This document shows positions 1-21,319 of a DNA stretch of 64,000 bases, one piece after another. Position 1 is the first letter of the stretch; each line of letters starts with the position of its first letter. The notes below the pieces were generated by a model. The model had not been told where the DNA came from. It saw only the letters and a list, made by a program, of their open reading frames with translations, and did no database searches. The DNA is from Eledone cirrhosa (taxonomy: Eukaryota). Both the position numbers and the translations under genes were made by a program. The stretch is taken from assembly GCA_964016885.1 (NCBI GenBank), contig OZ024756.1, forward strand, positions 37,634,001-37,698,000. Reading direction: 5' to 3'.

Positions 1-1325
1 ATAGAGTAATGTAAATGTTATGTAAGATATTATGTGAGGTAAAGCCTTTACTGTGAAAATACAATAGTATATATAGAGTAATGTAAATGTTATGTGAGAT
101 ATTATGTGAGGTAAAGCCTTTACTGTGAAAATACAATAGTATATATAGAGTAATGTAAATGTTATGTGAGATATTATGTGAGGTAAAGCCTTTACTGTGA
201 AAATACAATAGTATATATAGAGTAATGTAAATGTTATGTGGGATATTATGTGAGGTAAAGCCTTCACTGTGAAAATACAATAGTATATATAGAGTAATGT
301 AAATGTTATGTAAGATATTATGTGAGGTAAAGCCTTTACTGTGAAAATACAATAGTATATATAGAGTAATGTAAATGTTATGTGGGATATTATGTGAGGT
401 AAAGCCTTTACTGTGAAAATACAATAGTATATATAGAGTAATGTAAATGTTATGTGGGATATTATGTGAGGTAAAGCCTTTACTGTGAAAATACAATAGT
501 ATATATAGAGTAATGTAAATGTTATGTGGGATATTATGTGAGGTAAAGCCTTCACTGTGAAAATACAATAGTATATATAGAGTAATGTAAATGTTATGTA
601 AGATATTATGTGAGGTAAAGCCTTTACTGTGAAAATACAATAGTATATATAGAGTAATGTAAATGTTATGTGGGATATTATGTGAGGTAAAGCCTTTACT
701 GTGAAAATACAATAGTATATATAGAGTAATGTAAATGTTATGTGGGATATTATGTGAGGTAAAGCCTTCACTGTGAAAATACAATAGTATATATAGAGTA
801 ATGTAAATGTTATGTAAGATATTATGTGAGGTAAAGCCTTTACTGTGAAAATACAATAGTATATATAGAGTAATGTAAATGTTATGTGAGATATTATGTG
901 AGGTAAAGCCTTTACTGTGAAAATACAATAGTATATATAGAGTAATGTAAATGTTATGTGAGATATTATGTGAGGTAAAGCCTTTACTGTGAAAATACAA
1001 TAGTATATATAGAGTAATGTAAATGTTATGTGAGATATTATGTGAGGTAAAGCCTTTACTGTGAAAATACAATAGTATATATAGAGTAATGTAAATGTTA
1101 TGTGAGATATTATGTGAGGTAAAGCCTTTACTGTGAAAATACAATAGTATATATAGAGTAATGTAAATGTTATGTGGGATATTATGTGAGGTAAAGCCTT
1201 TACTGTGAAAATACAATAGTGTATATAGAGTAATGTAAATGTTATGTGGGATATTATGTGAGGTAAAGCCTTTACTGTGAAAATACAATAGTGTATATAG
1301 AGTAATGTAAAAGCTAAAGGGTTAA
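1..1325 (+). repeat. 72-bp tandem minisatellite (~18 copies, runs off window start) ending in a piggyBac-like MITE right end
   Basis: Unit ATAGAGTAATGTAAATGTTATGTRRGATATTATGTGAGGTAAAGCCTTTACTGTGAAAATACAATAGTATAT recurs in register at 1, 361, 721, 1081. The array ends ...GCTAAAGGG-TTAA, like the MITE at 9938-10131. Confidence 0.95.
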
Positions 1326-1515
1326 ACTTTATGAAATATGTTGTCAAAATATAATGATGTAGACATATTGGTTTACTCTACATCTTCATTCTGGTCTTTA
1401 ATAAATAGTTTCAAGGTTATAATGATGATGATGATGATGATGATAGTGGTTATGATGATGACAATGATGATGATCATGATGATAGGAATGATTGTGATAA
1501 TGATGATGATGATGA

Positions 1516-1557
<42 letters not shown>

Positions 1558-2533
1558 TGCATATGGATGTGTGTGAGTGTGCGGTGTGTGAGTGTATGTG
1601 TGATGGCTATGATGTCGATAGAAATAGCAATGATCATAATGATGATGATGATGGTGACGATGATGATGGTGATGATGATGATGATGATGATGATGATTAA
1701 AGGTGATGACAATAATCATTGAAATAAATAAAAAAAAAAAAAGAAGCATGCACACATACAAATACATATACACACAGACAAACACATGCACAAACACTGA
1801 CACACAGACACACACAACTCCTCCCCCCGAAACACACACACAAACACATGCACAACGACCCCCACACAAACACATAAACAACGACACCCCCCAACCATCC
1901 CCACAACCACCACACACAAACACAATCACATGCACAAACACCCCCTCCCACACACACACAAACACATATAAACACACACAACCCCAAGCGACCCCTACCC
2001 CACATACACACACACACACAAACACATATAAACACACACAACCCCAAGCCACCCCACCCCCCACCCCCCACACACAAACACATACAAACTCATACACCCA
2101 CACCCACCCCAAACACTAATAGAAACACACCCAACATTAAACAATCGTGGTTATTCCATTTAAAATTATTTGAAAACTAATCATAGAATATTAAATTGAA
2201 ATTTTCTAAAATTAAAAGCAAAATTGAAATTAAATTGAAGAATATTCTGGGAAGTTTAGGAAAAAATAAAAGAGAAATTCTGGAAGAAAATGATAGAGAA
2301 AAATAAGAAGGAAATAGCAAATCTATTTCAGTAATGTTGGAAATTATGTTATATATATATATATATAAATATGTATAAATATGTGTATATATATATTTGT
2401 GTGTATAAATATATATATATATATGTGTGTATGTGTGTGTATGTATAAGTATAAATATATGTGTGTATAAATATATATTTGCGGGTGTGTGCACGTGTAT
2501 GGTTGTGTATATATATATATATATGTGTGTATT

Positions 2534-2670
<137 letters not shown>

Positions 2671-2679
2671 TTATCATCA

Positions 2680-2770
2680 TGGAGGTGTGTGGCTTAATGG
2701 TTAGAGAGCTGGTTTCACAATCGTGAGGTTGTGAGTTTGATTCCTGGCCTGAGCGATGCAGTGTGGTTCC
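2680..2770 (+). mobile_element. tRNA-like 5' head of SINE family B (3'-truncated)
   Basis: TGGCTTAATGGTTAGAG (A box) and GAGTTTGATTCC (B box); similar to the head of the full copy at 34764. Confidence 0.7.
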
Positions 2771-3112
2771 TATATATATATATATACATATATATAGAGA
2801 TATACATACATATATATACAAATATATATAGATATATATATAAATATAAATATATACATACATATATAGATATATACATACATATATAGATATATACATA
2901 CATATATATATATATAAATATATATATATATAAATACATATATATATACTTATATATATATATATATATATACATATATATATGGAAAGTTATATTTAAA
3001 TTGTTGGGTTACAACTAGTAAATATTTATAACTGATATAAAAGCACTCGACAAATATTTGGAGTATATTTACAATATTAAATAAATGGAAACTATATTTA
3101 TAAAACCATATC

Positions 3113-3178
3113 TATTTCATTATATATATTTCAGGGATATCATATTAACAATATGCTATGCCTTCCTCAGACAAAATA
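3113..3178 (-). ncRNA. Type I hammerhead ribozyme motif (left arm)
   Basis: Reverse complement of the motif at 3352-3417. Confidence 0.8.
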
Positions 3179-3351
3179 CAATATAAACAGTTTTATAGAT
3201 AAATAGATTCGACATACCGTAACAACATCGACTTGTATTTGAAAAGGTTGATTTGAAAAGGTTGATTTGACTACCAAATCAACCTTTTCAAATACAAGTC
3301 GATGTTGTTACGGTATGTCGAATCTATTTATCTATAAAACTGTTTATATTG

Positions 3352-3417
3352 TATTTTGTCTGAGGAAGGCATAGCATATTGTTAATATGATATCCCTGAA
3401 ATATATATAATGAAATA
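3352..3417 (+). ncRNA. Type I hammerhead ribozyme motif (right arm)
   Basis: Stem I TATTTTGT / CTGAGGA / stem II AGGCATAGCATATT-GTT-AATATGATATCCCT / GAAA / palindromic stem III TATATA / TA cleavage site / stem I' ATGAAATA. Confidence 0.8.
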
Positions 3418-3477
3418 GATATGGTTTTATAAATATAGTTTCCATTTATTTAATATTGTACATATATATATATATAT

Positions 3478-3838
3478 TAGAAAGAGAGGTTTTTTTTACA
3501 AAATGAAAAATAACCGAGGTGTCCTCCACGAGTGAAAGTATAAAGAAAAAAAGATGAAATCGAAAATGCAACTGGAGTCTTATTTTTTAAAAAAATATAT
3601 ATATTTATTTGGTTCCTTTACTGGTTTCGCAGTTCATCTGCTTTTCAAAAGTAGAGTTGAGATGGGGGGTTTGTGGTTTTTCTCATGAGATGTGAGAAAA
3701 ACCACAGACCCTCCATCTCAACTCTACTTTTGAAAAGCAGAAGAACTGCCAAACCAGTAAAGGAACCAAATAAATATATATATTTTTAAAAAAATAAGAC
3801 TCCAGTTGCATTTTCGATTTCATCTTTTTTTCTTTATA
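3478..3838. mobile_element. Foldback element (family 2): ~60-bp tail plus ~145-bp inverted arms, in (TA)n
   Basis: 3539-3685 pairs with 3693-3838 with a few mismatches; same tail-plus-arms layout as the adjacent element but unrelated sequence. Confidence 0.85.
3613..3654 (-). ncRNA. Candidate hammerhead with U3-A8 variant core
   Basis: Minus strand: CTACTT TTGAAAA GCAG-ATGAA-CTGC GAAA CCAG TA AAGGAA. Stem I is weak, and the right-arm copy has GAAA changed to CAAA. Confidence 0.55.
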
Positions 3839-4011
3839 TATATATATATATATACATATATACATATAATAAAAGAGTTTGTCTAACCGATTAGGGATTT
3901 AACAAAGATAACTCCGTATTACCTTCTATTTTATCCTCTTCTCTCATTCCATGATTTGCTCCTATACTCCACTTGAATCATTGTCCATGATGCAGCAGTC
4001 TTATTATTTGA

Positions 4012-4257
4012 AAACCATAGGCAGTGTCTTTCATTAGAAATATGGTAACAAAAGTGTTAAAGTGTTTATATTTATCTAAAAAACCTTCCACCATAATTTT
4101 ATATAAGAACCTTTGTTATGTTATGTTCCAAACATCAACTGAAAACTGAGAAAGTTATTTTACTAAATCTCAACCAAATTCTTTATCATTTTCGAAATTG
4201 TTTCAAAATTATTTAGGCAATGTCTTTCATTAGAAAATATGATAACAAAAGGGTTAA
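4012..4257 (+). mobile_element. Possible second piggyBac-like MITE, right-end fragments (duplicated terminus)
   Basis: TAGGCARTGTCTTTCATTAGAAA...TAACAAAAGKG-TTAA occurs twice (to 4060 and 4257); no left end seen. Confidence 0.35.
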
Positions 4258-5296
4258 TATAGATAAAGTTGGAAAATTTTATTTCCAGATAAGAAAACAA
4301 TAAAATATTTCATTTTTTTTTTTTTTGTGTGTGCATGTTTTTGTGAAATGTATTATTTGAAAAACTTAATAAATTATTTCCTTTAAAAAAAAAATCAATA
4401 ATAATAATAATAATAATAACAATAATAATAACAATAATAACAACAACAATGATAATAATAATAATAAATAAATAAATAAATAAATTAGGAAAATAACATA
4501 GAATGTTTGGAAAGAGACATTCCATCAAATTCTTCAAGGAAATTGTCTTTTTTCTCTCTTTTATTACCATTATTCATATTTATTTATTTATTAATTTATA
4601 TTTATATTTTTTAATTTATTTATATATTTATTTATTTATTTATATATTTATTTATATTTATATATTTTTTATTTATTTATATATTTATTTATATTTATAT
4701 ATTTTTTTATTTATTTATATATATTTTTATTTATTTATATATTTAGTTATATTTATATATTTTTTAAATTTATTTATATATTTTTTATTTATTTATATAT
4801 TTATTTATTACAAGAAACGAAAAAAAAAGACTAGTGGATATTTGAAATTAGAAAAAAAATAGCCTCCCCCCCAAAAAAAACATTTAAATATTAAATAGAC
4901 CCCCCCCCCCTACCTCACCCCACCCTCCCAAATATATATTATGAACCCCCCCCCCCCAATCCCATACTACCCAGCTTCACCACTAAAATAGAATATGGTT
5001 ATGGAAACAAAAACAACTAGCAAAAATATCTACATAAAAATTATTAAAAAAAAATAATGATGACAATGATGATGGTGATGGTGATGGTGATGATGATGAT
5101 GACAATGATGATGATGATGGTGATGGTGATGATGATGATGATGATGAGCACGACGATGATGAATATGATGATGATGATGATGACTTTTATTCATCACATG
5201 GGCTCAAGACAATAGGAACTATACAAAGACAAAATAACACAGAATAGGGGTCACATCAAGTAAAGAAAAAGTGGTTACCACCGAAGGGAAAACATC

Positions 5297-5615
5297 CTCA
5301 TCATCGCTATTTAATGTCCATTTTCCACGCTGGCATGGGTTAGATGAGTTGCCCCATAGTGAGACAAGCTAGGTCTGATGTCTATGTCTTGACTTGCTCA
5401 TATACGACTGGTCTTGGCTTGGTTTGATGCCCTTCCTAACACCAATCACATTTTCAGTTTGTGCTTGGTGATTTTTGTCATAACACCTACATGACCACTT
5501 TACAGTGGTTTGAGAAAGGTGCAGCAGGGCCAACTGACCAGACTTGTCCCATCACATGGATGATCCGTCTAACCCATGCAAGGATGGAAAAATGGATACT
5601 AAATGATGATGATGA
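5297..5615. mobile_element. Two oppositely oriented RTE-LINE/SINE 3' tail fragments
   Basis: Minus copy has GCATGGGTTAGA...GATGCCCTTCCTAACACCAA as in the LINE 3'UTR at 31960-32110. Plus copy has CCGTCTAACCCATGC...(GAT)n. Confidence 0.7.
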
Positions 5616-5642
5616 AAATGTTATTATTATTATTATTATTGA

Positions 5643-5832
5643 AGGGCGGTGGATTGGCAGTATCGGTAGAGGGTCGGACGCCATGCTTTGCAGCAAAGAG
5701 TTACGGCCCTTTATGGTCTGAGTTCAAATCCCGCCGAGGTTAACTTTGCCTTTCATCCTTACGGGGTCGATAAAATAAAGTACCAGTAATGCACTGAGAT
5801 AATTGCTGGCCTTGTGCCAAAAGTAGAAACAA
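5643..5832 (+). mobile_element. tRNA-derived SINE family A
   Basis: A box TGGCAGTATCGG, B box GTTCAAATCC, central GCCGAGGTTAACTTTGCCTTTCATCCTTACGGGGTCGATAAAATAAAGTACCAGT, (ATT)n tail; more than 10 copies in window. Confidence 0.9.
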
Positions 5833-5847
5833 TTATTATTATTATTG

Positions 5848-6066
5848 AAGGTGATGGATTGGCAGAATCGGTAGAGCATCGGACAACATGCTATGTGGCA
5901 TATAGTTGCGTCCCTTTACCTTCCAAGTCCAAATCCCGCCAAGGTTAGCTTTGCCTTTCATCCTTACAGAGTTGATAAAATAAAGTACTAGTAATACACT
6001 GGGTTCTATATAATCGACTTACCCCTCCCCCAAAATTGTTGGCCTTGTGCCTAAATGAGAAACCAT
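5848..6066 (+). mobile_element. SINE family A (long variant), tandem with previous copy
   Basis: Same head and core plus an extra ATCGACTTACCCCTCCCCCAAA segment. Confidence 0.88.
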
Positions 6067-6792
6067 TATTGTTATTGTTGTTTTTTGTTATCATCATCAT
6101 CATCATTGCATTTTTTTACTAATTTTTCTTTCTTTTTTTAAATAATTTTATTATATTTTTTCTTCCTACAGATTTTATTGGTTAATTTGATTTTTCTGTT
6201 TTATTTTTATATTTTATTTTCAGATATTTATTTATTTATTTATCTATTTATTTATTTGTAAAATCTTTTTTAATTTTCTGCAAGATAAGGGATTTTTCTG
6301 GTTTTGTTTATATTTCATCCATTTTAATTCCATTAGTTTTATGTATCTACATATGTATGTGTGTGTGTATATATATATCTATTTATCTCTCTCTATATAC
6401 ATACATATATATGTGTGTGTGTGTGTGTCTGTGTGTGTGTGTGTATCTATTTATCTCTCTATATATGCATATATATGTGTGTGTGTGTGTGTGTGTATAT
6501 ATATCTATTTATCTCTCTATATACATATATATGTGTGTGTGTGTGTATATATATCTATTTATCTCTCTCTATATATACATATATATATGTGTGTGTGTGT
6601 GTAATATTCATATACAATAATATATACTATATATTGATATATATGTATGTGTATATATGTTAATACATCCATACATACATAAATGTATATATATATATAT
6701 ATGTGTATATATATGTGTGTGTGTGTATATATATGTGTGTGTGTGTGTATATATATGTATATATGTATGTATGTATGTATGTATATATATAT

Positions 6793-7381
6793 TGTGCTAC
6801 TGGTAACATGTATCCCAGTACAACCTGTCTCATGGTCGGGTCGTTGGCGACTAAACTGGAAACCCCACCAAGGTTTCTTGGTGAGGAGGGTGGCTTTGGA
6901 CATCCTGCAGGACTAAAAACAAAACCTGTCAAAGGGCAAAGGAACTCTTAAGAGTCAATGGCCATCCAAAATCACCAGGAGAGATGACACCTTAGCCTTT
7001 GTCAAGGCAGAATTCTAGGAGAAGGAAAACTCTGATATAACACCTGCAACCCTGATGGTATCCAATGATGTTGACTTGTTCTTCTTTTTGGTAAATATCA
7101 TCTTGGTTAAGAGAGTAGGACTGGCTTTGTGCAATGCTCACTATAAAAGCTTCACAGCACAGGCATTGCTTTATATCTGGAGATCTCTCTGCACTTGTCG
7201 TCACCTGGTACCATGGGCCCAACACTATGTGTCAATAATTGTCACAAGTGTAGTGTTTGTACCAGAGTTTCAAGTCGCTGGTTGGACTAAAAAGTCACAC
7301 TCGTTCAGCGCATCTGTAGGGGTTCTCCTACATGAATATAAAGTAGTGGCCGTACTCGAAAGCGAGTTGGTAGCCACCACC
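6793..7381 (+). mobile_element. Dispersed element resembling an RTE-clade 5'UTR, in (TA)n
   Basis: Motifs AAAACAAAACCTGTCAAAGGGC and CTAGGAGAAGGAAAACTCTGA, recalled from RTE 5'UTRs. 7011-7158 is homologous to the flanks of the 48-bp array (16003-16130, 21319-21339). Confidence 0.55.
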
Positions 7382-7422
<41 letters not shown>

Positions 7423-7752
7423 CATATATACATATATATATATTTATATATATATACATATATATCTATTTTTATATATATATACATATATATATACATA
7501 TATATATACATCTATATATACATATATATATACATATATACATATACATATATATATACATATATATACATACATATATATATATATATATATACAAATT
7601 CATATATGTGATGATGATGATAATGATATATATATATATCAAGATAAGCAGAACAAGTAAAAATTCAATCAATTTTTCAAAATAAATCAAAATTAATATA
7701 CAATCAAAATTAATTAAAATTAAAAAATATAATATAAATATTTACCTATTCT

Positions 7753-7840
7753 AATGGCCCTCACTGTACAGTTTCACGGTGCAAAACATTAAATATCACA
7801 AGGATATTAATGGAAAAGCAACGATCATCAGAGAAGCATT
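7753..7840 (-). ncRNA. Type I hammerhead ribozyme motif with long stem II
   Basis: AATGCTTCT CTGATGA T CGTTGC...CATTAATATC-CTTGT-GATATTTAATG...GCACCG T GAAA CTGTACAG TG AGGGCCATT. Stem I 8/9 paired, palindromic stem III ACTGTACAGT. Cleavage triplet is GUG here but GUU in the second repeat (8291). Confidence 0.8.
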
Positions 7841-8071
7841 TTCCTGTCCTAGGGTTAAAAACCCCAGGAACGACAAAATATATGACCTCACTCCAACTAA
7901 TACAGGTCTAAAAGGTCGTGAAAGTGACCCGTAAATACATTGGTGTATAGTGAAGGCGGGAAATCGTAGACTCGCCGTCTATAGCTCGCCACTAAAAAAA
8001 AGATTTTTAGTAACTAAATATAACGACAAAATTTGTATCTCTACATATGGAGATTATTGAAAAAGGTTAAT

Positions 8072-8115
8072 ATATATCTGAGGGTACAATGTACCCCCGG
8101 AAATATATAGTGTGT
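8072..8115 (+). ncRNA. Decayed opposite-polarity hammerhead motif
   Basis: ATATAT CTGA[---] GGGTAC-AAT-GTACCC CCG GAAA TATA TA GTGTGT. The core lacks one TGA of CTGATGA; stem I pairs with G-U wobbles. Confidence 0.5.
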
Positions 8116-8653
8116 CTATGATTTAAGGTGGTTCTATGGTAATAATTTGATATACCAGAACATAATATCAAGATAAGCAGAACAAGTAAAAATTCAATCA
8201 ATTTTTCAAAATAAATCAAAATTAATATACAATCAAAATTAATCAAAATTAAAAAATATAATATAAATATTTACCTATTCTAATGGCCCTAACTGTACAG
8301 TTTCACGGTGCAAAACATTAAATATCACAAGGATATTAATATATATATATATATACACAGTTACATATAAATCTAATCTTTGTTAGTGAGCAGGCATTAA
8401 ATGATAACAATATATATGTACAATAAATGTGTATATATATATGTGAGTCTGTGTGTTTGTGTGCGTATGTATGTATATATGTATGTATATATGTATGTGT
8501 GCATGTATGTATGTATTGAGGATGCACCAATAAACAAATTGGTTGATTTTCGATTACTGATTAATCAGTAGCTGATTATCTATAATGTAATTATGTATTG
8601 TGATATGAGAATACATTTTATAATTAATTGTAAGTGATATATTATAATATTTG

Positions 8654-9571
8654 AGCCCACACTGTAAAGTGGTTGTGTAGGTATCACAACAAAAAGCACA
8701 CAGCCCACACTGTAAAGTGGTTGTGTAGGTATCACAACAAAAAACACACAGCCTACACTGTAAAGTGGTTGTGTAGGTATCACAACAAAAAGCACACAGC
8801 CCACACTGTAAAGTGGTTGTGTAGGTAACACGACAAAAAGCACACAGCCCATACTGTAAAGTGGTTGTGTAGGTATCACGACAAAAAAACACACAGCTGA
8901 CACTGTAAAGTGGTTGTGTAGGAATCACAACAAAAAGCACACAGCCCATACTGTAAAGTGGTTGTGTAGGTAACACGACAAAAAGCACACAGCCCATACT
9001 GTAAAGTGGTTGTGTAGGTATCACGACAAAAAAACACACAGCCCACACTGTAAAGTGGTTGTGTAGGTATCACAACAAAAAGCACACAGCCCACACTGTA
9101 AAGTGGTTGTGTAGGTAACACGACAAAAAGCACACAGCCCATACTGTAAAGTGGTTGTGTAGGTAACACGACAAAAAGCACACAGCCCATACTGTAAAGT
9201 GGTTGTGTAGGTATCACAACAAAAAGCACACAGCCCACACTGTAAAGTGGTTGTGTAGGTAACACGACAAAAAGCACACAGCCCATACTGTAAAGTGGTT
9301 GTGTAGGTATCACAACAAAAAGCACACAGCCCACACTGTAAAGTGGTTGTGTAGGTATCACAACAAAAAGCACACAGCCCATACTGTAAAGTGGTTGTGT
9401 AGGTATCACAACAAAAAGCACACAGCCCATACTGTAAAGTGGTTGTGTAGGTAACACGACAAAAAGCACACAGCCCATACTGTAAAGTGGTTGTGTAGGT
9501 ATCACGACAAAAAAACACACAGCTGACACTGTAAAGTGGTTGTGTAGGTATCACGAGAAAAAAAGCACCCA
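8654..9571 (+). repeat. 48/49-bp minisatellite (~19 copies) derived from RTE LINE 3'UTR sub-repeat
   Basis: Unit AGCCCAYACTGTAAAGTGGTTGTGTAGGTAWCACRACAAAAAGCACAC; resembles the reverse complement of 32125-32180. Confidence 0.92.
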
Positions 9572-9629
9572 GTAAAGGCATTATTTGAGATTGGATAGTA
9601 TATATACACACGCACACATGTATATCATG

Positions 9630-16085: not shown

Positions 16086-19000
16086 TTGTCACCATTGTTG
16101 AGAGAGTGGCATTGGTCAAGTGTAAGGCCTTTCTTGTCACCATTGTTGAGAGAGTGGCATTGGTCCAGTGTAAGGCCTTTCTTGTCACCATTGTTGAGAG
16201 AGTGACATTGGTCCAGTGTAAGGCCTTTCTTGTCACCATTGTTGAGAGAGTGGCATTGGTCCAGTGTAAGGCCTTTCTTGTCACCATTGTTGAGAGAGTG
16301 ACATTGGTCCAGTGTAAGGCCTTTCTTGTCACCATTGTTGAGAGAGTGGCATTGGTCCAGTGTAAGGCCTTTCTTGTCACCATTGTTGAGAGAGTGGCAT
16401 TGGTCCAGTGTAAGGCCTTTCTTGTCACCATTGTTGAGAGAGTGACATTGGTCCAGTGTAAGGCCTTTCTTGTCACCATTGTTGAGAGAGTGGCATTGGT
16501 CCAGTGTAAGGCCTTTCTTGTCACCATTGTTGAGAGAGTGGCATTGGTCCAGTGTAAGGCCTTTCTTGTCACCATTGTTGAGAGAGTGACATTGGTCCAG
16601 TGTAAGGCCTTTCTTGTCACCATTGTTGAGAGAGTGGCATTGGTCCAGTGTAAGGCCTTTCTTGTCACCATTGTTGAGAGAGTGGCATTGGTCCAGTGTA
16701 AGGCCTTTCTTGTCACCATTGTTGAGAGAGTGACATTGGTCCAGTGTAAGGCCTTTCTTGTCACCATTGTTGAGAGAGTGGCATTGGTCCAGTGTAAGGC
16801 CTTTCTTGTCACCATTGTTGAGAGAGTGACATTGGTCCAGTGTAAGGCCTTTCTTGTCACCATTGTTGAGAGAGTGACATTGGTCCAGTGTAAGGCCTTT
16901 CTTGTCACCATTGTTGAGAGAGTGGCATTGGTCCAGTGTAAGGCCTTTCTTGTCACCATTGTTGAGAGAGTGACATTGGTCCAGTGTAAGGCCTTTCTTG
17001 TCACCATTGTTGAGAGAGTGACATTGGTCCAGTGTAAGGCCTTTCTTGTCACCATTGTTGAGAGAGTGACATTGGTCCAGTGTAAGGCCTTTCTTGTCAC
17101 CATTGTTGAGAGAGTGACATTGGTCCAGTGTAAGGCCTTTCTTGTCACCATTGTTCAGAGAGTGGCATTGGTCCAGTGTAAGGCCTTTCTTGTCACCATT
17201 GTTGAGAGAGTGACATTGGTCCAGTGTAAGGCCTTTCTTGTCACCATTGTTGAGAGAGTGACATTGGTCCAGTGTAAGGCCTTTCTTGTCACCATTGTTC
17301 AGAGAGTGGCATTGGTCCAGTGTAAGGCCTTTCTTGTCACCATTGTTGAGAGAGTGACATTGGTCCAGTGTAAGGCCTTTCTTGTCACCATTGTTGAGAG
17401 AGTGACATTGGTCCAGTGTAAGGCCTTTCTTGTCACCATTGTTGAAAGAGTGACATTGGTCCAGTGTAAGGCCTTTCTTGTCACCATTGTTCAGAGAGTG
17501 GCATTGGTCCAGTGTAAGGCCTTTCTTGTCACCATTGTTGAGAGAGTGACATTGGTCCAGTGTAAGGCCTTTCTTGTCACCATTGTTGAGAGAGTGACAT
17601 TGGTCCAGTGTAAGGCCTTTCTTGTCACCATTGTTGAGAGAGGGACATTGGTCCAGTGTAAGGCCTTTCTTGTCACCATTGTTGAGAGAGTGACATTGGT
17701 CCAGTGTAAGGCCTTTCTTGTCACCATTGTTGAGAGAGTGACATTGGTCCAGTGTAAGGCCTTTCTTGTCACCATTGTTGAGAGAGGGACATTGGTCCAG
17801 TGTAAGGCCTTTCTTGTCACCATTGTTGAGAGAGTGACATTGGTCCAGTGTAAGGCCTTTCTTGTCACCATTGTTGAGAGAGTGACATTGGTCCAGTGTA
17901 AGGCCTTTCTTGTCACCATTGTTGAGAGAGGGACATTGGTCCAGTGTAAGGCCTTTCTTGTCACCATTGTTGAGAGAGTGACATTGGTCCAGTGTAAGGC
18001 CTTTCTTGTCACCATTGTTGAGAGAGTGACATTGGTCCAGTGTAAGGCCTTTCTTGTCACCATTGTTGAGAGAGTGACATTGGTCCAGTGTAAGGCCTTT
18101 CTTGTCACCATTGTTGAGAGAGTGACATTGGTCCAGTGTAAGGCCTTTCTTGTCACCATTGTTGAGAGAGTGACATTGGTCCAGTGTAAGGCCTTTCTTG
18201 TCACCATTGTTGAGAGAGGGACATTGGTCCAGTGTAAGGCCTTTCTTGTCACCATTGTTGAGAGAGTGACATTGGTCCAGTGTAAGGTCTTTCTTGTCAC
18301 CATTGTTCAGAGAGTGGCATTGGTCCAGTGTAAGGCCTTTCTTGTCACCATTGTTGAGAGAGTGACATTGGTCCAGTGTAAGGCCTTTCTTGTCACCATT
18401 GTTGAGAGAGTGACATTGGTCCAGTGTAAGGCCTTTCTTGTCACCATTGTTCAGAGAGTGGCATTGGTCCAGTGTAAGGCCTTTCTTGTCACCATTGTTG
18501 AGAGAGTGACATTGGTCCAGTGTAAGGCCTTTCTTGTCACCATTGTTGAGAGAGTGACATTGGTCCAGTGTAAGGCCTTTCTTGTCACCATTGTTCAGAG
18601 AGTGGCATTGGTCCAGTGTAAGGCCTTTCTTGTCACCATTGTTGAGAGAGTGACATTGGTCCAGTGTAAGGCCTTTCTTGTCACCATTGTTCAGAGAGTG
18701 GCATTGGTCCAGTGTAAGGCCTTTCTTGTCACCATTGTTGAGAGAGTGACATTGGTCCAGTGTAAGGCCTTTCTTGTCACCATTGTTGAGAGAGTGACAT
18801 TGGTCCAGTGTAAGGCCTTTCTTGTCACCATTGTTCAGAGAGTGGCATTGGTCCAGTGTAAGGCCTTTCTTGTCACCATTGTTGAGAGAGTGACATTGGT
18901 CCAGTGTAAGGCCTTTCTTGTCACCATTGTTGAGAGAGTGACATTGGTCCAGTGTAAGGCCTTTCTTGTCACCATTGTTCAGAGAGTGGCATTGGTCCAG

Positions 19001-21319
19001 TGTAAGGCCTTTCTTGTCACCATTGTTGAGAGAGTGACATTGGTCCAGTGTAAGGCCTTTCTTGTCACCATTGTTCAGAGAGTGGCATTGGTCCAGTGTA
19101 AGGCCTTTCTTGTCACCATTGTTGAGAGAGGGACATTGGTCCAGTGTAAGGCCTTTCTTGTCACCATTGTTGAGAGAGGGACATTGGTCCAGTGTAAGGC
19201 CTTTCTTGTCACCATTGTTGAGAGAGTGGCATTGGTCCAGTGTAAGGCCTTTCTTGTCACCATTGTTCAGAGAGTGGCATTGGTCCAGTGTAAGGCCTTT
19301 CTTGTCACCATTGTTGAGAGAGTGACATTGGTCCAGTGTAAGGCCTTTCTTGTCACCATTGTTCAGAGAGTGGCATTGGTCCAGTGTAAGGCCTTTCTTG
19401 TCACCATTGTTGAGAGAGGGACATTGGTCCAGTGTAAGGCCTTTCTTGTCACCATTGTTGAGAGAGTGGCATTGGTCCAGTGTAAGGCCTTTCTTGTCAC
19501 CATTGTTCAGAGAGTGGCATTGGTCCAGTGTAAGGCCTTTCTTGTCACCATTGTTGAGAGAGTGACATTGGTCCAGTGTAAGGCCTTTCTTGTCACCATT
19601 GTTGAGAGAGTGGCATTGGTCCAGTGTAAGGCCTTTCTTGTCACCATTGTTGAGAGAGGGACATTGGTCCAGTGTAAGGCCTTTCTTGTCACCATTGTTG
19701 AGAGAGTGACATTGGTCCAGTGTAAGGCCTTTCTTGTCACCATTGTTCAGAGAGTGGCATTGGTCCAGTGTAAGGCCTTTCTTGTCACCATTGTTGAGAG
19801 AGTGACATTGGTCCAGTGTAAGGCCTTTCTTGTCACCATTGTTGAGAGAGTGGCATTGGTCCAGTGTAAGGCCTTTCTTGTCACCATTGTTGAGAGAGTG
19901 GCATTGGTCCAGTGTAAGGCCTTTCTTGTCACCATTGTTGAGAGAGTGGCATTGGTCAAGTGAAAGGCCTTTCTTGTCACCATTGTTCAGAGAGTGGCAT
20001 TGGTCCAGTGTAAGGCCTTTCTTGTCACCATTGTTGAGAGAGTGACATTGGTCCAGTGTAAGGCCTTTCTTGTCACCATTGTTGAGAGAGTGACATTGGT
20101 CCAGTGTAAGGCCTTTCTTGTCACCATTGTTGAGAGAGTGACATTGGTCCAGTGTAAGGCCTTTCTTGTCACCATTGTTGAGAGAGTGGCATTGGTCCAG
20201 TGTAAGGCCTTTCTTGTCACCATTGTTGAGAGAGTGACATTGGTCCAGTGTAAGGCCTTTCTTGTCACCATTGTTGAGAGAGTGACATTGGTCCAGTGTA
20301 AGGCCTTTCTTGTCACCATTGTTGAGAGAGTGACATTGGTCCAGTGTAAGGCCTTTCTTGTCACCATTGTTGAGAGAGTGACATTGGTCCAGTGTAAGGC
20401 CTTTCTTGTCACCATTGTTGAGAGAGGGACATTGGTCCAGTGTAAGGCCTTTCTTGTCACCATTGTTGAGAGAGTGGCATTGGTCCAGTGTAAGGCCTTT
20501 CTTGTCACCATTGTTGAGAGAGGGACATTGGTCCGGTGTAAGGCCTTTCTTGTCACCATTGTTGAGAGAGGGACATTGGTCCAGTGTAAGGCCTTTCTTG
20601 TCACCATTGTTGAGAGAGTGGCATTGGTCCAGTGTAAGGCCTTTCTTGTCACCATTGTTGGGAGAGTGACATTGGTCAAGTGTAAGGCCTTTCTTGTCAC
20701 CATTGTTGAGAGAGTGACATTGGTCCAGTGTAAGGCCTTTCTTGTCACCATTGTTGAGAGAGTGACATTGGTCCAGTGTAAGGCCTTTCTTGTCACCATT
20801 GTTGAGAGAGTGACATTGGTCCAGTGTAAGGCCTTTCTTGTCACCATTGTTGAGAGAGTGACATTGGTCCAGTGTAAGGCCTTTCTTGTCACCATTGTTG
20901 AGAGAGTGGCATTGGTCCAGTGTAAGGCCTTTCTTGTCACCATTGTTGAGAGAGTGACATTGGTCCAGTGTAAGGCCTTTCTTGTCACCATTGTTGAGAG
21001 AGTGACATTGGTCCAGTGTAAGGCCTTTCTTGTCACCATTGTTGAGAGAGTGACATTGGTCCAGTGTAAGGCCTTTCTTGTCACCATTGTTGAGAGAGTG
21101 ACATTGGTCCAGTGTAAGGCCTTTCTTGTCACCATTGTTGAGAGAGTGACATTGGTCCAGTGTAAGGCCTTTCTTGTCACCATTGTTGAGAGAGTGACAT
21201 TGGTCCAGTGTAAGGCCTTTCTTGTCACCATTGTTGAGAGAGTGACATTGGTCCAGTGTAAGGCCTTTCTTGTCACCATTGTTGAGAGAGTGGCATTGGT
21301 CCAGTGTAAGGCCTTTCTT
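16086..21319. repeat. 48-bp minisatellite, ~109 highly homogeneous copies
   Basis: Unit TTGTCACCATTGTTSAGAGAGKGRCATTGGTCCAGTGTAAGGCCTTTC with no indels seen; flanks match the single-copy element at 7011-7158. Confidence 0.97.

Follow-up and report, generated by a model that had tools for sequence, protein, structure and literature searches.

The 529-nt unit repeated in a 64,000-nt stretch of Eledone cirrhosa DNA (the window) is, with a probability of roughly 0.8 judged from its sequence, a non-LTR retrozyme that carries one type I hammerhead motif per unit and was likely copied in trans into (TA)n by the reverse transcriptase (RT) and GIY-YIG nuclease of a Neptune-type Penelope element, likely from circular RNA. 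The element is of an already known kind, and it is the mechanistic record preserved in its family that is new. An earlier note had suggested that the unit may be a copy of a viroid-like or ambisense RNA with hammerheads in both polarities, whereas the ribozyme motif is found on one strand only. The evidence for the hammerhead, for the family to which the unit belongs and for the route by which its copies may have been inserted is described below.

Anatomy of the window copy

The whole insertion occupies positions 7636–8340 on the minus strand and is a 1.33-mer of the unit, with a 3' end fixed at 7636 and a 5' truncation at 8340. Direct repeats of 176 bp (7636–7811 and 8165–8340) lie at a spacing of 529 and differ by two mismatches (7715/8244 and 7762/8291). 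Unstranded (TA)n tracts are present at the 3' end of the insertion (7626–7639) and at the 5' junction (8340–8355), and a target-site duplication is not resolvable in TA. The unit is 31% GC and non-coding, its longest stop-free stretch being 67 aa. The repeats with their spacing and mismatches, the 1.33-mer in (TA)n and the non-coding character were all re-derived from the sequence, as the earlier note had given them. Circular folds of the unit have z-scores of −7.9 for the minus strand and −3.5 for the plus strand (40 shuffles).

Upstream on the minus strand, the 3' half of the next hammerhead is retained at 8282–8340, including GAAA at 8304–8301 and a GUU site at 8291, while its core is missing because of the 5' truncation. 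With a single core and a GUG site in the one complete hammerhead, the window copy is probably inert. Two further minus-strand hairpins are referred to here as the tail hairpins. Tail hairpin 1 (8131–8161) lies just beyond the main 3' end point at the unit junction (8165/8164), and is nearly invariant between the 529-nt family, designated family A, and a 459-bp family, designated family B. Tail hairpin 2 (8072–8108) is a simple stem-loop with compensatory changes, and tailed copies stop at 8036–8072, just past this hairpin.

Contigs of three sequencing runs (one sample, kind not on record) contain variants of the 529-nt family only. Contig depth is ~25,000 at 7723–7769 and 8240–8286 compared to ~1,000–8,000 in the unit body, and genome-wide pattern counts revealed no more abundant relative. 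Other repeats in the window include a 48-bp tandem array of 19 copies at 8654–9572, whose summed contig depth near one million marks a very abundant satellite, 109 arrayed copies of a 48-bp repeat (97% alike) at 16086–21319, and 18 arrayed copies of a 72-bp repeat (98% alike) at 1–1311. A dispersed repeat at 7000–7380 ends at a TA run and is seen by eye again, reversed, at ~2030–2420 of locus L085.

The minus-strand hammerhead

The type I hammerhead proposed in the earlier note at 7753–7840 of the minus strand is confirmed by its motif and by covariation across subfamilies. Helix I is formed by pairing of 7840–7832 with 7761–7753, and is followed by the CUGAUGA core (7831–7825), a long two-part helix II with a U.U at its base, the GAAA (7775–7772) and a palindromic helix III. 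Cleavage is predicted to occur after 7762, where the window copy has G (GUG). The suggestion that this base represents damage peculiar to the window copy was borne out, as the cut site is GUU in 58 of 59 units from the 27 loci that remained of the 30 best once 3 duplicates had been removed. In an alignment of 14 hand-picked hammerheads from subfamilies A, A2 and B, 92.7% of cells are paired in the named structure compared to 36–42% in slid controls; these sequences are related, so that cells overcount events. Changes on both sides are seen for 9 of the 24 pairs, and changes are found in all four helices. A descriptor comprising the core, helix II and GAAA is passed on the hammerhead strand by 43 of 50 family A and 3 of 5 family B full units.

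Taken by itself, the hammerhead region is no more stably folded than its shuffles (z 0.11). In the youngest subfamily, the GUU site and the U.U occur together with an interruption of helix II by a U.C, all of which would be expected to weaken cleavage, whereas the older A2 has a GUA site and a full helix. Rfam scans at E ≤ 10 of window positions 6500–9500 and of a two-unit stretch found no ribozyme family on either strand. Since these scans missed even the minus-strand hammerhead, their silence on the plus strand is weak evidence.

The plus-strand motif

The second hammerhead, placed by the earlier note at 8072–8115 on the plus strand and flagged there as the weak link, was not confirmed. The motif reads CTGAGGG with three extra bases before GAAA, and the region folds as one plain stem-loop on either strand. 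It had been suggested that a plus-strand core was damaged in the window copy and that the family might restore CTGANGA at 8078, but the core is absent throughout: a restored core was found in none of 36 aligned units, in none of 44 tail variants and in no match to a genome-wide pattern. Similarly, none of the 50 family A units and none of the 5 family B units passes the plus-strand descriptor (core, helix II and GAAA, with a strict or relaxed core), and the CTGA itself is altered in A2 and B. The central stem of tail hairpin 2 is maintained by compensatory changes in 3 of 10 pairs. Folding of the tail is more stable on the hammerhead strand in 31 of 44 variants, a mild asymmetry that is not decisive alone. 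The former plus-strand motif is a covarying hairpin of the hammerhead strand.

These results bear directly on the proposal that the unit derives from a viroid-like circular RNA that is ambisense, carries a ribozyme in each polarity, replicates from RNA to RNA and was then reverse transcribed into the genome. Avsunviroidae and the carnation retroviroid-like element, like the element described here, have a small structured hammerhead-bearing unit with DNA multimers, but family A differs from these in the absence of a second-polarity ribozyme and in its hundreds of genomic copies. The CTGA and GAAA on the plus strand do flank a hairpin for which weak helices can be drawn, and inverted insertions (described below) place one hammerhead on both strands of a single locus. 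Against this stand the consistent absence of a plus-strand core, the loss of CTGA in A2 and B, and the Rfam scans, which detect no other ribozyme on either strand, albeit with a low sensitivity that also missed the real hammerhead. The ambisense reading is already refuted as regards a hammerhead, and as a general account of the unit it is now extremely improbable.

The family in the genome

The unit belongs to a several-hundred-copy dispersed non-coding repeat family. An initial search of the 3.0 Gb genome gave 1490 candidates for the unit, of which 40 were scored, and full-length matches are 95–100% identical. The 25-mer that follows the cut site has 419 exact matches genome-wide, and a degenerate cut-site pattern has 610 matches, which are dispersed in (TA)n; the cut sites among 100 listed of these 610 are GUU (71), GUA (28) and GUG (1). 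Family B was a chance find at locus L085 (6510–7420, G000 C5). The 459-bp unit of this family is homologous to that of family A (~60% alike over the unit), and the L085 copy has its own type I hammerhead with a GUA site and the same tail hairpin as family A. A pattern for the shared tail hairpin has 1455 matches, A plus B. A pattern for a short-helix-II relative has three matches, two of which are rearranged family members.

Three further hammerhead types with canonical cores and a long helix II are present at L108 (2308–2396), L101 (32–124) and L052 (723–814), and these are probably further retrozyme families. Another non-coding family (L134–L143) has a canonical short hammerhead recognized by Rfam Hammerhead_1 (18 matches among 74 scored) and is also found in (TA)n with a ~100-nt tail and one-tailed inversions.

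As in the metazoan non-LTR retrozymes defined by Cervera and de la Peña 2020 (PMC7229834), the family A units are non-coding and tandem, each has one type I hammerhead, the GC content is low, LTR features are absent, and the units co-occur with Penelope elements. The family consists of short tandem non-coding units with a hammerhead motif, has no LTR arrangement and encodes no protein, and the length of its repeats depends on the extent of 5' truncation. For the axolotl retrozyme HHR_Amex2, too, a U.U at the base of helix II has been described. Distinctions are the length of the unit (529 nt compared to 170–400 nt in Cervera and de la Peña, though within the 51–972 bp given by Li 2026, 10.64898/2026.07.22.740005), the long extended helix II missed by Rfam, and the arrangement in short dispersed (TA)n arrays with Penelope-type tails and inversions. 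Cleavage and circles are reported by Cervera and de la Peña for coral, mussel and axolotl, whereas family A is described here from genomic DNA. A literature search of open papers found no such families described in cephalopods and no tail signatures described in retrozymes.

Ends of the insertions

All family A loci were merged into 55 insertions, with end positions read on the hammerhead strand. The sample mixes best matches (biased towards long copies), order-picked 25-mer matches and order-picked tail-hairpin matches (biased towards tails); two small neighboring fragments are counted apart, and two insertions are cut by the locus edge. The 3' ends fall into two classes, as 49 of 70 lie at unit positions 1–3 (window 7636) and 19 of 70 at unit positions 401–437 (window 8036–8072, just past both hairpins). 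The two fixed 3' ends are ~95–130 nt apart, and the sequence between them is the tail. TA repeats adjoin 57 of the 70 3' ends. In contrast to the fixed 3' ends, the outer 5' ends (40 in number) scatter along the unit and form small clusters at 442 and 525–529.

Inverted insertions, joined at their 5' ends, account for 15 of the 55. One plain and one tailed arm are present in 12 of these 15, compared to a tail in 4 of 40 direct copies. The same distribution is seen in the 22 order-picked 25-mer insertions, where 6 of 6 inverted copies are plain-plus-tailed and 3 of 16 direct copies are tailed. The two fixed 3' ends, 5' truncation, inverted arms and AT-rich target of family A are the end marks of Penelope elements. 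Judged by its sequence features, the family owes its hundreds of genomic copies to retrotransposition.

Relationship to Penelope elements

For Neptune and Naiad elements, Craig 2021 (PMC8557442) describes partial tandem copies, arms that are inverted and 5'-truncated, a tail that is optional and a bias towards (TA)n. The genome of E. cirrhosa contains 10,597 candidate GIY-YIG loci, of which 150 were scored. Most of the 40 loci examined are Neptune-type by domain order and linker (a label taken from the description in Craig 2021), with an RT, a CX5CXXC linker plus a GIY-YIG at the C terminus. For a Penelope protein encoded in this genome, the named homolog of highest identity comes from Octopus bimaculoides (75% over 56%). 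In the local Neptune-type elements, a hammerhead precedes a fixed end in (TA)n by ~125–150 nt. Both plain and tailed ends occur in three Neptune-type families, and inversions with a single tail are found at L098 and L052. Family A resembles Neptune-type elements in its (TA)n target, the hammerhead near the 3' end, partial tandems, the optional tail and the inverted 5'-truncated arm, and differs from these in the absence of an ORF and in its longer tail. Most local Neptunes also have minimal UUGAAAA/UUGAUAA cores, in contrast to the canonical core and long helices of family A. These variant cores are fixed in the minimal hammerheads of several Neptune-type families (L084, L085, L095, L101, L083). 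Locus L084 contains a 938-codon open frame with a hammerhead on both sides of the ORF, and retrozyme copies are found in the TA runs that Neptune copies have left at their 3' ends (L010, L052, L085), giving nested clusters.

No autonomous partner with clear homology to family A was found in the 40 GIY-YIG loci examined of the 150 scored, where BLAST and a tail profile recovered only family B. In a comparison of post-cleavage regions to five Neptune families, N3 was the single one to stand out (for family A, z 2.0 and 2.7; for family B, negative); N3 was picked after looking at the scores and is a lead only. Like family A, N3 has a canonical core, a U.U pair, a GUAC-centered helix III and a short tail motif, although the statistics are weak. 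As every end signature is Penelope-like, the copies could be viewed as ordinary pseudo-LTR fragments of an autonomous Penelope element. Attachment to a Penelope ORF, which the earlier note had named as evidence against its own proposal, was not seen: across the 55 insertions, the neighbor of the unit is either another unit, in head-to-tail order, or TA repeats, and none was seen running into an ORF. Additionally, the unit has no long frame, and an RT and GIY-YIG ORF between pseudo-LTRs was not found, leaving this explanation improbable.

Proposed mechanism and template

In the proposed mechanism, a multimeric copy would first be transcribed on the minus strand. Next, the hammerheads are predicted to cut the transcript to unit length, probably as dimers via the palindromic helix III, and a host ligase would close the circle, as in other retrozymes. 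The Penelope protein would then bind the tail hairpins, nick (TA)n and prime inside the RNA at one of two sites, two sites being proposed because of the two classes of 3' end. Priming on both strands would give inverted arms, one with a tail and one without. Finally, the enzyme would pass the ribozyme site and continue for up to 3.3 laps before dropping off at random, often at TA-like sequence. The window copy would be a product of this circle-templated route. Biochemical results from Frangieh 2024 (PMC11167929), a study of the Poseidon mechanism, provide a precedent for several of these steps: in vitro, both strands of AT-rich DNA are nicked by a Penelope protein, which begins at two internal positions in the RNA that are as far apart as the tail is long.

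Evidence on the template comes from the lengths, ends and variants of the copies. Copies longer than a unit were expected by the earlier note if circular or multimeric RNA is reverse transcribed, and a length above 529 nt is indeed seen in 11 of 16 order-picked direct copies. A linear monomer cut by the ribozyme would be expected to yield inserts of 126 nt; none of the 40 outer 5' ends lies at the cleavage site (the nearest are at 114 and 145), while two inner inversion joints are found at 126 and 131. Private variants are common to the units of one insertion in 15 of 42 insertions compared to 28 of 1413 cross-locus pairs (1.74 and 0.045 privately shared variants per 1000 columns, or 39 times more often within an insertion), with the qualification that these variants are judged on the sampled part of the family and some may mark small subfamilies. 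A circular template would explain the over-unit copies, the lack of a stop at the cut site and the privately shared variants, and would always supply a tail downstream of the start site. This pattern fits target-primed reverse transcription around a circle. We lean slightly towards the fuller reading, in which the family would be a copy-by-copy record of a Penelope RT carrying out target-primed reverse transcription in rolling-circle fashion on an RNA circle made by the ribozyme, with one internal site per DNA strand, 95–130 nt apart, the tail hairpins as protein-binding element, and several such long-helix hammerhead families in the genome, missed by Rfam.

Some observations count against the proposed mechanism. 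Units within an insertion differ by ~0–3%, and some tailed ends by 4–6%, so that a single circle needs later mutation or template switching. The tail of 95–130 nt is longer than the 30–40 nt given in Craig 2021. The ribozyme of the youngest subfamily looks weak, and its local fold is no better than shuffles. This last point also suits a different template for the same element and Penelope partner, namely an uncleaved linear multimeric transcript, with a weak ribozyme and circles that are rare or irrelevant. In vitro, the RNA used most as substrate is uncleaved (PMC11167929), multimers that could act as source are present (a 3.3-mer), and a homogenized source could also yield shared variants. 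Internal priming and 5' truncation would, however, shorten such a template in each generation, yet most order-picked direct copies exceed the unit; moreover, the private variants differ from locus to locus, and the hammerhead has been kept with covariation across families that are ~60% alike. A linear multimer is regarded as the less probable template.

Li 2026 (10.64898/2026.07.22.740005) ties retrozymes to Penelope pseudo-LTRs by homology and favors local amplification; cleavage was seen in 1 of 9 predicted retrozymes tested, and the mechanism is said still to be worked out. Applied to family A, that model would make the arrays minisatellites grown locally by unequal crossover after single insertions, which also predicts variants shared within a locus. 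The arrays are short (1–3.3 units) and dispersed, begin at the same base, stop at random and include inverted arms, all of which argue against local growth and make it very improbable here.

Significance

The copying of retrozyme circles by Penelope elements is the question on which the rolling-circle reading bears. Cervera and de la Peña 2020 (PMC7229834) proposed Penelope elements as likely mobilizers of circles into tandem cDNA, also naming LINEs, and in that paper the route is a proposal only. If true, the rolling-circle reading would be direct genomic evidence for the proposed retrozyme cycle. The youth of the family, its exact priming sites, its defined recognition region of 100 nt and the presence of near-intact Neptune ORFs alongside it in the genome make circle-templated integration testable in vitro. 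The family could also find use as a compact system for RNA-templated insertion, with TA repeats as the target.
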